From the IMG/VR virus record IMGVR_UViG_2711768058_000006: a DNA stretch of 6,041 bases; one strand, written 5' to 3'. Below the pieces are notes generated by a model that had not been told where the DNA came from, did no database searches, and was given only the letters and a program-made list of their open reading frames with translations. How positions within the stretch are numbered: position 1 is the first letter of the stretch; each line of letters begins with the position of its first letter. A program made the translations under genes and the position numbers. Of this stretch, positions 1 through 5,872 are shown in pieces. Origin of the DNA: a virus (Duplodnaviria; Heunggongvirae; Uroviricota; Caudoviricetes).

Positions 1-1286
1 ATCTCTGTGAACTTACACAGCCTAACCAATACTTAATCTGTGATTCTTACGGTAACTACTATTTACGGATCACGCTGCCTGTGTATATGCAGCCCTTTTT
101 TGAAGGAAAAAGGACGTTTGTCAGGAGTCTGCACACAAGTAATCTTCGTGTTGCACGTAGAAAGCGTGATCAGATTGCAGATGAATACCATTGCTTACGG
201 GAGAGTGTTGCCCCTGTAAACAGCACAATAGAGAACACGCTGGAGCTATTACGCAGTAAGGCTAAATACGCCAAAACAGCTACCAGAATGCAAGATACAG
301 CGTCTTCGTGTCCGTCATTGCTTAAAATTCTTGAAATCTACCTGACAATTAACAGCACGAAGAAGAAGCCAGCCACTTTAGCTAAGGCAAGAAAAGCGGT
401 AGAGATGTTTCTCTCCTACCGTAAAAAGCCTGATATTGCATTGCAAGATGTGAGCCGCACCACTGTTACAGGCTGGATTGAACACATGCAAAAAACCCTT
501 TCACAACAATCAATTGCAAATTATATCAGCCCAATGGCCCAGCTATGGGAGTTAGCTTCATCACGTTACCACGATGCGCCAGAAAGGGCGCTCTCCCCCT
601 GGCGAGGGCATAGGCTTGATGTGGCACAAAGTAGAGAGAGCTACGAGGCATTTTCTAACAAAGAGCTATTGCAGGTGTTGCAAGTATTTTCCGGTAATTC
701 AGCAGAAAACAAAGAAATGATGGCTTTGTGTCTTATCGGTTTATATACAGGTATGCGGATCAATGAGATAGCAAGTCTCACAATAGACGATGTGAAAGAG
801 ATCGAAGGTGTGCTGTGTTTTGAAATCACACAGGGAAAAACGAAAGCTGCGGCACGTGTTGTGCCTGTGCATAGCCTTATCACTCCGTTGGTGTTATCTC
901 TTCGTGAAAAGCCTCACAATGGCTTTTTGTTCTATCACGCCAGCATCACAGAACGTGCTGATGGTAAACGTTCCACGTGGCACACGCAGAGATTTACAAG
1001 AGCTAAACGAAAGGCTTTAGGGGAAAAGGGAACAGAAAGGAAGGTGTTTCATTCTCTGAGACACGGAGTAGCACAGCTTCTTGATCGAAATCAAATTCCA
1101 GAAGACAGGATCGCCCTTCTCCTGGGCCATACACGCGGCAATACAGAGACATTCCGCACATATAGCAAGAATGCAGCTTCTCCAGTAGAGCTTAAAAACT
1201 ATATTGAGCTTCTACGCTACCCTGAAATAGAGAAAGGCTTATCAATCAATAAAAAATCAAATTTAAGGCGTAAAACAACGCCATAG
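1..1286 (+). CDS. int: Tyrosine-type site-specific integrase (lambda Int-like), 5' partial; frame is open from nt 3 to the window edge
   Basis: The frame of the 81..1286 ORF has no stop back to nt 3 and no ATG or SD before 87, so the gene most likely starts left of the window. The upstream in-frame translation ...NQYLICDSYGNYYLRITLPVYMQPFFEGKRTFVRSLHT resembles the lambda Int arm-binding N-terminus (NGYYCYRDPRTGKEFGLG, from memory). The C-terminal catalytic signatures are present: LYTGMRINE (box I Arg), HSLRHGVAQLL (H-x-x-R) and LLGHTRGNTETFRTY (His plus Tyr nucleophile). Stop is TAG at 1284-1286. Confidence 0.9.
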   Translation, partial: LCELTQPNQYLICDSYGNYYLRITLPVYMQPFFEGKRTFVRSLHTSNLRVARRKRDQIADEYHCLRESVAPVNSTIENTLELLRSKAKYAKTATRMQDTASSCPSLLKILEIYLTINSTKKKPATLAKARKAVEMFLSYRKKPDIALQDVSRTTVTGWIEHMQKTLSQQSIANYISPMAQLWELASSRYHDAPERALSPWRGHRLDVAQSRESYEAFSNKELLQVLQVFSGNSAENKEMMALCLIGLYTGMRINEIASLTIDDVKEIEGVLCFEITQGKTKAAARVVPVHSLITPLVLSLREKPHNGFLFYHASITERADGKRSTWHTQRFTRAKRKALGEKGTERKVFHSLRHGVAQLLDRNQIPEDRIALLLGHTRGNTETFRTYSKNAASPVELKNYIELLRYPEIEKGLSINKKSNLRRKTTP

Positions 1287-1367: not shown

Positions 1368-2081
1368 CTATTCCTGCTTAAAGGCAGGCGTAATAGTATC
1401 TTCACCTTCACTACTTGATTTTTCAGTGTTAACACGTTTTTTCATATTCGCCCCGATGTTCTTAGATGGCTGTGTTTTGATAGCTACAGTGTTTACTGTG
1501 CCATAAGACACTAATCTGATCTGTTCAAATTCCAAATCAAATACCAGAGATTCGCTTGCCTCTTCTGTGTATTCGATGCCTGTTAAAACAACGTTCTCAA
1601 AAGTTTTATTTTCTGTAACAAGAAGAAAAGGCTGTCTACTGTCCATAATCTGATTCAGGTAATCTATAGCCAATGATCTTCTGTTCCCGTTCACCCCTGC
1701 ACTCTTTAACAAGCCAGGATCGCTTTTAATCGGTGTTTCAGTGATACGCCCTTTAAGAGAAAACTTATTATTCTTCACTTGAACGTGATCAGACACAGTA
1801 GCACCATTTTCTACGGGGTAGCTTGTGACATCTGCCGAACGTCTCACGTTCACATCGTCTACACTATCAAAGGCCAGTGCCATATAATTTTCATAAACGT
1901 CATTACCAGAAGATGCCAAGCCACTGGTAACAATAGCAAATCCATTCTCTCCTTTTGTTTTATTAGCTTTGCTATTTTCGTTTTTTGTAGAATTTATATC
2001 TTGTTCTGCTTTGTAAACAGCCTGAACGTGTTGTTCTGGGGAGTTTGCTGCACGTATGGTTAAAATCCCGGCGGTCGCCAT
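1368..2081 (-). CDS. Hypothetical protein, 237 aa; possible virion or tail-tip component (weak call)
   Basis: Intact ORF with ATG at 2079-2081 preceded by AAGGAAA, and last gene of the leftward operon. Lys/Asn/Ser-rich N-terminus and acidic C-terminal tail. The segment QPFLLVTENKTFENVVLTGIEYTEEASESLVFDLEFEQIRLV loosely resembles the C-terminus of lambda minor tail protein M (...VEFSAEFEQVVN, from memory). This is motif-level only. Confidence 0.6.
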   Translation of the reverse strand: MATAGILTIRAANSPEQHVQAVYKAEQDINSTKNENSKANKTKGENGFAIVTSGLASSGNDVYENYMALAFDSVDDVNVRRSADVTSYPVENGATVSDHVQVKNNKFSLKGRITETPIKSDPGLLKSAGVNGNRRSLAIDYLNQIMDSRQPFLLVTENKTFENVVLTGIEYTEEASESLVFDLEFEQIRLVSYGTVNTVAIKTQPSKNIGANMKKRVNTEKSSSEGEDTITPAFKQE

Positions 2082-2103: not shown

Positions 2104-3948
2104 TTATGGGGGGAATTCCCCGCCGTTGGATTGTCCTGATAAGCTGGTTAATGTTAATGATTTCAAGAAGCTATCCCGACTTGCTCTCGCTGTAAAATCC
2201 ACATAATCGCTTAATCTTGATGTGTCAGAATTAATAGTAAGCGGAACCTCTGTTACCACTTCAAATGTAGGATTCAGATTAAACACAGGAGATAAATTAT
2301 AAGCCGGAGTTGTCATTGCAAGATTATTTAAAGCACCCTGTTTGAGATTGGTTATCGGTGCTTCGCTGACTGACATTTTTACATCTGACACAGAAGATTT
2401 ATCATCGAAAAGCAATCCCTTAATCGTGTTAAAGAGAGAATGACTATTATCAGGTGTAGTTGTTGCAGTGCCAGCGCCTTTATATTGATCAGGAACGAGA
2501 TCAGAAAGATTTTGTTTCATTCCATCATTACTCAAAGGCGGTGCATCCCCCATATTTTTCTGAATAGCTTCCGTCTTATCATCATTACGATTAAACCAGT
2601 TTACAATCTTCATAATAGCTTCAAAGAGACTTCCTGTAGCTTCTCCTAGCTTCGTAAAATACGGAGTGAGATTAGAAAGGTTTTTCATAAACTCTTCCGT
2701 TACTTTTGGATCAAGAGATTTCATAAAGCCGTCTACGAATGCTACTTGCCTTGCATCAGAAAGCTGTGAAAGCTGTCTGTTTAGTTCTCTGAATTTAACA
2801 ATAGAGTCTTGCTGTGTTTCTGTTAGCCATTGTCCGGCGGCTTTTTGCTGATTAATACTTTCTTGTACATCTTTAACGGAACGTTGCCAATATTTTGACG
2901 TAAGCATCAAATCATCGCCCAGGTCTTCTAAACGTTGTCCAATTTGGGAGTCTGAAAAACCTTTTTTCATCATTCCATTAACAGCCTTAGAAATTAATCC
3001 GGCTGGATTATCAGCAAATTTTTTAAGGTCGCTTTTGTTAATAACACCGATGTTTAGAAGTTCATTAATAGCGTTATCACCGCCTTTCCATTCGCCGCCT
3101 TTACCAGTTTTTTTATCGACTACATATTCAGCTTCACTATAGGATTTTGCGGCACGTTCCCTAACATCTTTCATCTGATCCAGGTATTTCCTAGCCCCTT
3201 GATCACCCATCATAGAGTCAACGCCGTTTCTATACGCCCATTCTGTAATATTATACATCTGGTTAACGTCTACACCGCCAAGCCTTGCACGTTGGATTAA
3301 TTCTCCTTGTGTTTCAGCATTAGCGAAGCTGTTAGCCATAAATTCAGAGGTTTTACTAACAGCCATCACGCCAGCAGCAGCCGTAGCGCCTCCAAATAAC
3401 AGAGCGCCCATAGTGGCGGAGTTCCCTGATCCTCCCTTAACGGGGGCTAATTGAGCTTTTCTGTTGCCATTAATCTTACGTTGTTGCTGTTGTAGGCGTT
3501 TCATCTGACTATTCATACGTGCAAGCGAGATAGCCCCTTGCTCATATTGTTTTGCTATCTCTCTAGCCTGTGCAATAGCTTTGTATTGTTCCGCTACAGA
3601 GAGGCGGTGCATTGCACTGATAGAGCTTGACACATCGAGGAGCTTTAATTCTGCTTTCTCCTTACGTGCTGCTATTTGTTGCTGTTGCCTTGCCTGTGCT
3701 CTTGCTGCGGCAGCTTGTGCTCTTTGATTCTGTTTTTCGTTTTTCGCTTTCTGTTGAGCAATCTTGTCTACCTCGTTTTGTGCTTTCTTATAGCCTTTAG
3801 TGACAGTATCGAATCTTAATTTAGCTGGCTTGATATTTTCTGCGAATTCCTTTAAGCCTGTAATAGAGTCTTTCGCTTTTTTCAAGCTGTCTTTATCTAC
3901 ACTAAATGTAACTGTGTTCTTAATTTTAGAAGTGTTAATTTCTAACAT
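2104..3948 (-). CDS. Large coiled-coil protein, 614 aa; tail tape-measure-like or internal virion protein-like (hypothesis)
   Basis: ATG at 3946-3948 with SD AAGGGGA 6 nt upstream. The N-terminal third is Q/A/R/K-rich low-complexity coiled coil (QKAKNEKQNQRAQAAAARAQARQQQQIAARKEKAELK, about 3650-3720). This is followed by a Gly/Ala-rich hydrophobic stretch GGSGNSATMGALLFGGATAAAGVMAVS (about 3355-3435) and a long, apparently helical C-terminal region. That combination is typical of phage tape-measure or minor tail proteins, but no family is confirmed. Confidence 0.7.
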   Translation of the reverse strand: MLEINTSKIKNTVTFSVDKDSLKKAKDSITGLKEFAENIKPAKLRFDTVTKGYKKAQNEVDKIAQQKAKNEKQNQRAQAAAARAQARQQQQIAARKEKAELKLLDVSSSISAMHRLSVAEQYKAIAQAREIAKQYEQGAISLARMNSQMKRLQQQQRKINGNRKAQLAPVKGGSGNSATMGALLFGGATAAAGVMAVSKTSEFMANSFANAETQGELIQRARLGGVDVNQMYNITEWAYRNGVDSMMGDQGARKYLDQMKDVRERAAKSYSEAEYVVDKKTGKGGEWKGGDNAINELLNIGVINKSDLKKFADNPAGLISKAVNGMMKKGFSDSQIGQRLEDLGDDLMLTSKYWQRSVKDVQESINQQKAAGQWLTETQQDSIVKFRELNRQLSQLSDARQVAFVDGFMKSLDPKVTEEFMKNLSNLTPYFTKLGEATGSLFEAIMKIVNWFNRNDDKTEAIQKNMGDAPPLSNDGMKQNLSDLVPDQYKGAGTATTTPDNSHSLFNTIKGLLFDDKSSVSDVKMSVSEAPITNLKQGALNNLAMTTPAYNLSPVFNLNPTFEVVTEVPLTINSDTSRLSDYVDFTARASRDSFLKSLTLTSLSGQSNGGEFPP

Positions 3949-3962
3949 TTAAAATCCCCTTA

Positions 3963-4166
3963 TTAATCATTTTTATCACCTTCTTTGCTTAAGAAATGGT
4001 GTAGAGCCTGATCAATGCTCTCGTTTAATCTGAACATACGGGCTTTTACGCCTTCATAGGGAACATCTAAAAGAGAACATAGATATTTCAGATTTAACAA
4101 GCCTCTAGAATCATTAGCATCTAAATGTACGTGTACACCATTTTTTGATTTCAGAATCACTTCCAT
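3963..4166 (-). CDS. Small hypothetical protein, 67 aa
   Basis: ATG at 4164-4166 with a strong SD (AGAGGTGA, about 8 nt spacing). Its stop lies 14 bp before the 614-aa start, and it sits immediately downstream of the 4209-4235 hairpin. No recognisable motif. Confidence 0.55.
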   Translation of the reverse strand: MEVILKSKNGVHVHLDANDSRGLLNLKYLCSLLDVPYEGVKARMFRLNESIDQALHHFLSKEGDKND

Positions 4167-4190
4167 ATTTTAATCACCTCTCAAAATTTA

Positions 4191-4235
4191 AAAAAATAAA
4201 TAAAAAAAGGCGAAGCGTGAATACACGCCACGCCT
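4191..4235 (-). terminator. Rho-independent terminator or attenuator on the minus strand, immediately after the 342-aa gene
   Basis: GC-rich hairpin: + strand GGCGAAGCGTG (4209-4219), loop AATA, CACGCCACGCC (4224-4234), giving 9 of 11 pairs. On the minus strand it is followed by a long U-tract (+ strand A-run 4191-4208, AAAAAAATAAATAAAAAAA). Its position inside the operon suggests partial termination, which would give higher expression of the upstream 120-aa and 342-aa genes. Confidence 0.6.
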
Positions 4236-4253
4236 CTATTACACGTTAAAATA

Positions 4254-5282
4254 TTATTTAACAGTGATTTGAACGGAGAAGCCTACACCGTGGTTTACCA
4301 CCATCTGGCTATTCTCGGTCACTACGTGCACTGCGTCGCCGCGAGAACCCTCATAACTATAGCTATACACCTCAGCAGGAGCGGCATTAATCAGTTCAAA
4401 GGTGCTGGAAGCTGCCCCGTAGATGCTCTGGTAGACGTTAGAGAATTTAGAGAACTTCGGAATCGCAACCGCATCAGAAGTCATATGTGCAAGGTGTAGC
4501 GGATCTACCAGTTTAACAACATCAATGTTAGTTCCTGGAATAGTGAACGCTGTCACTCCTGGTAGCAGGTCACGACGCTGATACACAACATTCCCTTCTT
4601 CCAGTGGGCTTACATACTGGAATGCGTTTGCCATACCAGCAGAGAATCGAATTGCAGAGAAGGCTTCCGGCTTACAGAAAACAACAATACGCTCTACAGC
4701 CGCCGCCTGACTCTGTGCTTTTTCGATAATGTCAGTAGCAATCTGATCAAATTCTTTAAAAATCTTCGTGGTGTCAGTGCTGGAAGCGTTCACAGTGGCT
4801 TTCATAGCTGATACGTTAAACAGCTTGCCCCACTCAATTAACACATCATCAGTTTTAGGCGTGTAAGTTTTGCCAGAGAACAAAGAAGCCGCCAACACGC
4901 TCTCTTTAGTACGCTGGAATGCAACATTGTGTTTAGCGATATATTCCGCATAGATATCAGTGAGTGTTTCCTGAAAATCAGTGCCAGGCTTACGCTTGCC
5001 TTGAACATCAGAAGGTCTAATCACATCCTCACGAAGAAAATACGGGATTTCGATCAGCCATTCTTTACCTTGTTCTCGCTTAGTAACGTTGTGTTCAGAA
5101 GAGAAACGAGAGGTTTCTTTGTTGAACAGAGATTCGTTGCTTTCGACAAGCTGGGAAACAGCTACTTTATGAGAACTAACGCCCACCGGATCAGTGAAGT
5201 CGAGAGTAGAAAGTAGATAATTTCTAGTGCTATGCGCAGAGAACAAAGGAGCTAAATCAACGTAATCATTACCTAGAATCAT
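4254..5282 (-). CDS. Putative major capsid protein, HK97-fold-like, 342 aa (hypothesis)
   Basis: ATG at 5280-5282 with SD AAAGGAA. The internal segment AVERIVVFCKPEAFSAIRFSAGMANAFQYVSPLEEGN parallels a segment I recall from T7 gp10 (DRVFYCDPDSYSAILAALMPNAANYAALIDPEKGS) and, more loosely, lambda gpE (IIVFDPKGWALFRSF). Length is close to lambda E (341 aa). The gene is followed by a strong terminator, consistent with a highly expressed structural protein. Not verified by any search. Confidence 0.7.
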   Translation of the reverse strand: MILGNDYVDLAPLFSAHSTRNYLLSTLDFTDPVGVSSHKVAVSQLVESNESLFNKETSRFSSEHNVTKREQGKEWLIEIPYFLREDVIRPSDVQGKRKPGTDFQETLTDIYAEYIAKHNVAFQRTKESVLAASLFSGKTYTPKTDDVLIEWGKLFNVSAMKATVNASSTDTTKIFKEFDQIATDIIEKAQSQAAAVERIVVFCKPEAFSAIRFSAGMANAFQYVSPLEEGNVVYQRRDLLPGVTAFTIPGTNIDVVKLVDPLHLAHMTSDAVAIPKFSKFSNVYQSIYGAASSTFELINAAPAEVYSYSYEGSRGDAVHVVTENSQMVVNHGVGFSVQITVK

Positions 5283-5300
5283 TTATTATTATTCCTTTTA

Positions 5301-5663
5301 TTAAGAAGTGAAAACAGAGTGGAACCCTTCAAGCTGGAAGCCTTTTTTAATTAATGCTGTTTTTGCTGCTTCACTTACAGCATTCAGCGCATCAGCTTTG
5401 ATGCAGACAAGGCCAGCATTAGCACGAAGCACATCTACAGGCTTGTTTTCTCCAGCCGTTACAAATTCACTCATAACAACATAGATATCATCTCCTGATT
5501 CATATTTAGCGCCCGTGCTGGTGATCAAGTCTCCGCACTCAACATCAGCAGGAAGAGAAGCAAAAACCTTGCTTTCTACAGAGGCAAACGGATCAGTACA
5601 ATAACTTACAATATCTGTGAAAGTCTTTCGAACTGGAAATAGAGCGTCTAAATCAATAATCAT
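5301..5663 (-). CDS. Hypothetical protein, 120 aa; possible capsid accessory (decoration or scaffold-like) protein, based on position only
   Basis: ATG at 5661-5663 with a canonical SD (AAGGAGA, 8 nt spacing). It sits directly upstream of the capsid-like gene, analogous to a small head-accessory gene preceding a capsid gene. No sequence motif recognised. Confidence 0.65.
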   Translation of the reverse strand: MIIDLDALFPVRKTFTDIVSYCTDPFASVESKVFASLPADVECGDLITSTGAKYESGDDIYVVMSEFVTAGENKPVDVLRANAGLVCIKADALNAVSEAAKTALIKKGFQLEGFHSVFTS

Positions 5664-5872
5664 TTAGTAATCTCCTTAGCTTTTAATTTGATTAATTCAT
5701 TAAGGGAAGGTGTAGACGGAGAAGAAGGAGAAAAATATTTTTCAACACATCTTTCTACTTCCTCGACAGAACACCCAGCGTATTTAGCTACCATTTCGGT
5801 AATTTGTGGAGTAATTCGCAGCATTTCATTTTTATATTTTATGATTTGCTCTTTATCGTTTAAAAACAACAT
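5660..5872 (-). CDS. Small hypothetical protein, 70 aa; possible helix-turn-helix DNA-binding protein
   Basis: First gene of the leftward operon. ATG at 5870-5872 with a weak SD (AAGGT). Its TGA stop overlaps the ATG of the 120-aa gene (ATGA at 5660-5663), suggesting translational coupling. The segment ITEMVAKYAGCSVEEVERCVEKY has an HTH-like helix-turn-helix pattern. Confidence 0.55.
   Translation of the reverse strand: MLFLNDKEQIIKYKNEMLRITPQITEMVAKYAGCSVEEVERCVEKYFSPSSPSTPSLNELIKLKAKEITK

Follow-up and report, generated by a model that had tools for sequence, protein, structure and literature searches.

Phage satellites such as cf-PICIs, P4-like satellites and the PLEs of Vibrio cholerae are small (about 11–18 kb), att-flanked elements that encode an integrase and their own replication initiator together with an incomplete set of virion genes. 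cf-PICIs also encode their own capsid protein, and the helpers of PLE and PICMI are virulent phages (the PLE helper ICP1 is a lytic phage of ca. 126 kb). In the literature that we searched, none of the P4-like, PICI, cf-PICI and PLE elements is described as encoding a tape measure and a tail-tube initiator; the same search, whose coverage was incomplete, retrieved no satellite of phi92, Stephanstirmvirinae or Vequintavirinae and no satellite with either of these tail proteins. The tail-tube initiator itself is known from the cryo-EM structure of phage phi92, where gp135, a hexamer consisting of a tube-like domain and, at the C-terminus, a loop that is flexible, stacks on the trimeric hub gp137 and encircles the C-terminus of the tape measure gp134 (PMC13450770).

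Here, we describe a 12.4-kb chromosomal island of E. coli that has the features of these satellites listed above (att flanks, an integrase, its own replication initiator and capsid protein, an incomplete virion gene set and, as its likely helper, a virulent phage) and whose structural operon ends with a tape measure gene followed by a gene of the gp135 type. The analysis is centered on a 6,041-nucleotide stretch of the island (IMG/VR record IMGVR_UViG_2711768058_000006), which is referred to below as the window.

The initiator homologue and its operon

The window contains, on its minus strand, a 237-codon ORF at positions 1368–2081 (ATG at 2081, TAG stop codon at 1368–1370), with an AGGAA ribosome-binding site ca. 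11 nt upstream. The window is 100% identical to E. coli JMF1 DNA, and the ORF product is JMF1 protein WP_001388904.1, a RefSeq “phage baseplate protein”. The coordinates and length reported for this ORF in the earlier note are correct, and the gene is both real and conserved. It closes a minus-strand operon and, as the earlier note also observed, directly follows the tape measure gene (2104–3948, minus strand; 614 aa, or 610 aa as annotated from a downstream ATG; phrog_16051, E = 4e-53), from which it is separated by 22 nt. The tape measure gene is preceded by an ORF for a 67-aa protein of unknown function (3963–4166, minus strand), whose position matches that of a 75-aa ORF in front of the tape measure gene of phi92-like phages; the order of small ORF, tape measure and initiator is the same in phage Bas62. 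No sequence similarity was detected between the 67-aa protein and its positional equivalent in Bas62; by position, it could be a tape measure chaperone.

The remaining genes of the operon, all on the minus strand, are head-related or small. The gene at 4254–5282 codes for a 342-aa major capsid protein of the lambda gpE/HK97 type (Pfam Phage_cap_E, 1.2e-14), which matches PDB entries 9zbi_A (9e-11) and Phi92_gp124 (1e-6) and is highly divergent, with at most 25% identity to any phage capsid protein. A 120-aa protein (5301–5663) sits, by synteny with Bas62, where a head decoration protein or a cement protein would be expected; it showed no homology to Pfam or PHROG families or to its positional equivalent in Bas62. 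The block is opened by the gene of a 70-aa protein of unknown function (5660–5872).

On the other side, the operon converges with a tyrosine integrase gene (1–1286, plus strand; Pfam Phage_integrase, 1e-17, and DUF6538), whose start, as annotated in JMF1, precedes the window by 7 nt. A 9-bp inverted repeat, AAAGAGGCT / AGCCTCTTT, with a 15-nt loop was read from the sequence between the two convergent genes (1294–1326) and may serve as a bidirectional terminator; because of the length of its loop, it was not flagged by a pattern scan. Further, at window positions ca. 1337–1344 (10738–10745 of island locus L001), 24 nt past the stop codon of the 237-codon gene, there is an 8-mer, TGTAACGA, which forms the core of repeats found in the putative origin region of the island (see below). 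The L001 locus contains 6 copies of this 8-mer against an expectation of 0.5, and the 8-mer may be bound by a protein or be related to packaging.

The 237-aa protein matches the Pfam family PF21821 (Dit_like) with an E-value of 3.6e-29 (101.9 bits against a cut-off of 24.2); the match spans residues 71–198 of the protein and positions 1–126 of the 127 in the profile. A sequence search of the PDB retrieved Phi92_gp135 (21vq_N, E = 1.2e-78), the phiTE tube initiator (9cuy_K, 2e-13) and Pam3 gp17 (9e-7); identity to phi92 gp135 is 61% over residues 11–215. By tblastn, 653 phage genome records were matched, the best of them being E. coli myophages of the Stephanstirmvirinae (Justusliebigvirus, Phapecoctavirus) with ~145-kb genomes and 58–61% identity, in which the gene is annotated as “tail tube initiator”. 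The family is large, with 1747 cluster representatives at E ≤ 0.001. By homology, then, the 237-aa protein is a tail-tube initiator of the contractile-tail (myophage) type, new to a known and structurally solved family but an ordinary member of it. Given its 61% identity to gp135, it would be expected to assemble as a hexamer into a ring that separates the hub from the first ring of the tube. The role of a tail-tip initiator foreseen in the earlier note is borne out in this sense, since proteins of this type start tube polymerization on the hub.

The protein shares with phi92 gp135 and other Stephanstirmvirinae initiators its length class (236–237 aa), its position after the tape measure and the predicted tube-like domain. 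It differs from gp135 in an additional N-terminal decapeptide and in a C-terminal tail that is different and conserved among islands, and its gene is part of a 12.4-kb chromosomal island instead of a 145-kb virulent phage genome, with none of the adjoining hub, plug, tube and sheath genes that phi92-like phages have. A common fold and a common position in the baseplate connect it also with phiTE 9cuy_K, Pam3 gp17, XM1 gp11 and Bas63 gp018, as well as with gp38-39 of Pa193/E217, the pyocin “ripcord” PA0626 and the LysM-type initiators of phiCD508 and eCIS, but here identity is only 12–26%, and some of these proteins have LysM or other extra domains that the island protein lacks.

Structure prediction yielded a tube-like fold, a β-sandwich with a helix, with fold matches to tube initiators. 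The single-sequence AlphaFold2 model (pLDDT 39) was discarded in favor of an MSA-based one of moderate confidence, with a mean pLDDT of 57 and values of 70–86 over most of residues 65–195. The Pfam match, the model and the fold matches together place the core domain at about residues 65–195 (window positions 1497–1889, minus strand). In front of the core, alignment A4 reveals the island-specific decapeptide MATAGILTIR (2052–2081, minus strand), which is missing from phage proteins. It is followed by a patch that, by sliding nucleotide identity, matches the Justusliebigvirus gene at 87–89%, codons 11–30 (1992–2051, minus strand), and which includes a helix predicted at residues 15–30. The earlier note had described the N-terminal 60 residues as low-complexity and K/N/S-rich. 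Residues 29–46 are indeed rich in N, K, S and T, yet the segment is conserved: N30, N34, K43, G47 and F48 are invariant, and residues 11–48 are among the stretches closest to phi92 gp135. At the other end, alignments A1 and A4 define an island-specific tail, residues 216–237 (...GEDTITPAFKQE; 1371–1436, minus strand), which is unlike the phage C-terminus and is conserved in islands of several genera; its T231 is invariant in A4 and nearly invariant in A1.

Relation to lambda gpM

The earlier note had linked the C-terminus of the 237-aa protein to lambda minor tail protein M. The segment in question, LVFDLEFEQIRLV (residues 179–191; 1509–1547, minus strand), is not the C-terminus of the protein: it belongs to the last strand of the core domain (strand predicted at 178–194), thus closing the folded domain, and 46 residues come after it. 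Lambda gpM ends in RVEFSAEFEQVVN, and the pattern F-x3-EFEQ-[IV] is literally common to both proteins. The positions concerned, F..(E)F(E/K)Q(V/I), are conserved in both families, with F181, L183, F185, E186, Q187 and R189 invariant among relatives of the 237-aa protein and F104, Q106, V107 and V108 invariant among those of gpM. The likeness in the motif is therefore real to the letter, but the match does not rise beyond chance. BLASTP of the 237-aa protein against gpM gave a non-significant E-value of 0.15, with an alignment that runs co-linearly through a helix, a short strand and a hairpin of the secondary structure prediction. A profile–profile comparison by hhalign of 91 diverse relatives of the 237-aa protein (A3) with 20 gpM relatives (A2) aligned 12 columns with a probability of 8%, which is not significant, and comparison of A1 with gpM or A2 gave about 1%, with 10–12 columns of the last strand alone being aligned. 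The gpM profile used here is shallow, as the homologue search returned only close relatives (at least 59% identity).

At E-values up to 1, the 237-aa protein did not match PF05939 (Phage_min_tail), which gpM itself matches with 1.2e-39. Since this match is absent, profile–profile scores are not significant and the proteins differ in length (237 vs 109 aa), membership in the gpM family was rejected; the true relatives of the protein are myophage tube initiators, with gp135 the 61% match. gpM, a distal-tail ring protein of the PF05939 family, is a single-domain protein, whereas the island protein has extensions. gpM acts in a non-contractile tail tip together with gpL, gpK, gpI and gpJ, none of which is found in the island, where the 237-codon gene is terminal and the next gene is that of the convergent integrase. 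The two proteins do share a fold. Of the comparisons proposed in the earlier note, the one with the gpM profile thus gave no significant match, while profile and structure searches found the tube-initiator family and a tube-like fold. In our reading, the likeness to gpM is that of a common tube-like fold with an equivalent last β-strand, without detectable sequence homology.

Boundaries, content and distribution of the island

In E. coli strain ST866, the operon is part of a 12.4-kb element inserted between proA-thrW and yagP-paoD. Flanking the whole element is a direct repeat of 20 nt, ATGGTGCCGATAATAGGAGT, consisting of the 3′ end of the tRNA-Thr gene thrW (positions 15832–15851 and 28206–28225 of the ST866 locus, L035). 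Both repeats are outside the window, the first one located ca. 155 nt before window position 1. The ends were located only in a 38-kb stretch of this strain; scans of 10-kb flanks revealed neither tRNA genes nor att repeats. At this same chromosomal junction, K-12 has the right end of its cryptic prophage CP4-6. A relationship to CP4-6 was considered and rejected, as the K-12 prophage has this junction in common with the island but no homologous genes.

The island contains genes for the integrase, the initiator, the tape measure, the 67-aa protein, the capsid protein, the 120-aa and 70-aa proteins, three small ORFs, a replication initiator and two tiny ORFs; some copies additionally have a resolvase. 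Inspection of the whole island by Pfam, PHROG and annotation revealed no gene for a portal, terminase or protease and none for a tube, sheath, hub or fibre, so the absence of a tube protein, noted earlier for the window, holds for all 12.4 kb. We also recognized no small subunit of terminase, no pac/cos function and no factor for capsid size. Among island ORFs, there were no Pfam, PHROG or NCBIfam matches to psu, sid, delta and alpha of P4, to alpA, pri-rep, terS and ppi/rpp of PICIs or to the portal, protease, adaptor and terS genes of cf-PICIs, although small ORFs without matches could hide analogues. PLE markers are likewise lacking. PADLOC and NCBIfam scans of the island produced no matches.

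The replication initiator is O/DnaD-like in three island lineages (phrog_270, 4e-8 to 7e-9); in a fourth, represented by Klebsiella locus L012, it matches phrog_8102 (3e-7). It is adjoined by a gene-poor stretch of 2–3 kb with 36% GC and iteron-like arrays (positions 2100–2900 of L001, to the right of the window). In L001, the motif TGGATGTAACGA..GTTACAT occurs at least 5 times, ACCTAGGAAATGATTTCC occurs 4 times with a 23-nt spacing, and a 33-nt repeat is present twice. An Rfam search of the island gave nothing credible, and the iteron stretch matches no Rfam family. This stretch is probably the island origin, and homology suggests that it and the replication initiator constitute a functional replication module.

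Contigs of E. coli chromosomes that code for exactly this 237-aa protein are numerous (listed in 230 blocks of the assembly collection). Matches to the window are present in 606 of 5426 complete E. coli genomes (about 11%), with at least 80% of the window covered in 240 of them (about 4% of the total). Megablast of the window against phage genomes gave no match, the link to phi92 being seen only at the protein level. The same layout recurs in Klebsiella pneumoniae, Enterobacter hormaechei and a second, very divergent E. coli lineage (L016 6107–8085, corresponding to window positions 3963–5872). In the latter, the capsid, 120-aa, 70-aa and 67-aa proteins are 19–24% identical to those of the window, whereas the tape measure and the initiator are 62–63% identical; head and tail modules therefore evolve, or are exchanged, independently. 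Copies inserted at thrW and copies located beside yqeG/kduI have different integrases, and thus the integrase module has been swapped. Between L001 (10837 onward; window positions ca. 1–1245) and L004, island homology breaks off within the integrase gene, very close to its 3′ end.

The JMF1 copy (L009) contains several IS elements: IS481 directly upstream of the integrase gene (7921–8961), ISKpn26 inside the replication-initiator gene (16701–17681) and IS903B further on (19394–20317). Because of these insertions, including the one in the replication gene, this copy may be immobile; its structural genes are intact. The ST866 copy, by contrast, has no annotated IS insertion and appears to be intact.

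Gene exchange with phi92-like phages and the role of the island

Compared to Bas62, the island proteins show a steep gradient of similarity. The initiator is 61% identical; the tape measure is ~30% identical overall and 53% over its first 66 aa; the capsid protein is 21% identical, and the small proteins have no detectable similarity. The tape measure matches phi92 gp134 (PDB 21vq_V) with an E-value of 6e-38, its first ~46 aa being near-identical (window positions 3811–3948), and is 34–37% identical to Stephanstirmvirinae tape measures. In all islands, a patch of ~100 bp at the 5′ end of the tape measure gene has 81–85% nucleotide identity to phage DNA and takes in 18 nt that lie upstream of the start codon in the phage. 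Such similarity is the mark either of a constraint that a partner encoded by the helper imposes or of an anchor for recombination.

In islands otherwise 96–99% identical to that of the window, the initiator gene alone has been replaced. One such allele (P0010) is 94–95% identical to Justusliebigvirus initiators at the protein level and 93.8% identical at the nucleotide level over 551 bp, from codon 11 to codon ~194. Another (P0008) is chimeric, with 95.9% nucleotide identity to phage over 319 bp, to about codon 117, beyond which it is identical to the window allele. Both alleles nevertheless begin with MATAGILTIR and end with ...GEDTITPAFKQE. The window allele has a patch of 87–89% nucleotide identity to Justusliebigvirus at codons 6–30, and the Klebsiella island allele is closest (81%) to Klebsiella phages of 142–150 kb. 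These patches are recombination scars and show recent exchange with virulent phi92-like phages. They also show that the DNA of the island and that of virulent phages come together in one cell, and that a core of phage origin is functional within the protein of the island.

Four 146-kb “Campylobacter phage” records (MG065639, MG065645, MG065656 and MG065689) gave initiator and tape measure matches with the same identity, E-value and span as those of E. coli Justusliebigvirus, and these records are therefore probably mislabelled or contaminants.

Among E. coli copies, the genes of the capsid protein, the tape measure and the 120-aa and 67-aa proteins have dN/dS values of 0–0.14, and that of the initiator has 0.24–0.32, its dN/dS and dS being the highest in the operon. 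The most constrained gene is that of the 67-aa protein, with dN = 0 at a synonymous divergence of 0.05–0.16 among E. coli islands. These genes are under purifying selection.

What can be the role of such an operon? An att-flanked element with an integrase, a replication module of its own and an incomplete set of virion genes has the makings of a satellite, and the morphogenesis of any particle would therefore have to depend on a helper. We lean towards seeing in the island a satellite whose helpers are virulent myophages of the phi92-like (Stephanstirmvirinae) type and which places its own tape measure and initiator on baseplates borrowed from the helper. One can envision that infection by a phi92-like helper would cause the island to replicate and to express its structural operon. 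The island tape measure and initiator would be loaded onto hubs or baseplates made by the helper, six initiator copies forming a tube-like ring on the trimeric hub, around the C-terminus of the tape measure trimer, that would template the first ring of tube protein. Helper tube and sheath would then polymerize on the island initiator, committing these tails to the satellite, while the island capsid protein would build a small head suited to a genome of ~12 kb, which would be packaged and transferred in the resulting particles. Roughly 12 kb is also the genome size of satellite P4. Satellite specificity would be conferred by the island-specific termini of the initiator. Several observations count against the satellite reading. 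Identity between the capsid proteins of the island and of the phi92 type is only ~21%, and matches in IMG/VR are prophage calls from isolate genomes only. Terminase small subunit, pac/cos and capsid-size functions went unrecognized, the structure model is of moderate confidence, and the JMF1 copy may be immobile. By sequence, moreover, a constructive role of the initiator looks no different from an interfering one.

The absence of tube, sheath and hub genes would also be expected if the initiator, and perhaps the tape measure, were a dominant-negative decoy: its core would occupy helper hubs and its termini would block tube or sheath assembly, so that the island would protect the host population or bias assembly instead of building tails of its own. 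An initiator core that is interchangeable with that of the phage between termini that stay island-specific fits this scheme, and the elevated dN/dS and dS of the initiator are compatible with an arms race. Interference with tail assembly by satellite or island genes is a known strategy (PMC11364771). Taken alone, however, a decoy leaves unexplained that the capsid protein, the tape measure in its full length and their companions are co-conserved under purifying selection across genera, and PADLOC found no matches. We consider interference of this kind, the main rival, rather unlikely to be what the island does; since satellites often do both, it and the satellite reading do not exclude one another.

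Very unlikely, in our estimate, is that the island is an inert remnant, i.e., an ancient prophage derived from a phi92-like or other myovirus that is decaying and has no present function. Its thrW site is that of cryptic CP4-6, the JMF1 copy is riddled with IS elements and most virion genes are missing, as one would expect of a remnant. Decay does not, however, account for a minimal gene set whose order is conserved in three genera with ORFs intact and dN/dS far below 1, for the precise 20-bp att repeats, or for a replication initiator and iterons of the island's own. Integrase modules have been swapped, reaching new sites, and the alleles produced by recent gene conversion with circulating phages are in frame and of full length; moreover, phi92-like phages are virulent and do not form lysogens. 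As to the reading that the 237-codon gene is a gpM orthologue, albeit a divergent one, of a siphovirus-like tail-tip module, the comparisons described above effectively refute it as a matter of family membership, and we give it next to no credence.

If the island is a satellite, as we are inclined to think, it may, tentatively, stand for an undescribed satellite family of Enterobacteriaceae, found in E. coli, Klebsiella, Enterobacter and others, that parasitizes ~145-kb phi92-like myophages. With its own tape measure, initiator and highly divergent capsid protein, such a family would re-programme both head and tail assembly, repeatedly swapping initiator cores with its helpers while keeping satellite termini.

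The setting of the 237-codon gene matters more than the protein itself, the lead to gpM having been reduced to a common fold. Apart from small companions (two with the capsid gene, one with the tape measure gene), the only recognized virion genes of the island are those of a capsid protein, a protein that sets tail length and a protein that starts the tube. Were the island a satellite, it would be an example from Enterobacteriaceae of parasitism on large virulent myophages of the kind used in phage therapy and, as far as the literature searched goes, the first satellite shown to supply parts of the tail core. It would also provide a natural system for learning on which of its surfaces an initiator has to fit the hub, the tube and the tape measure. 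Finally, the island could affect the efficacy of therapeutic phi92-like phages against strains that carry it.
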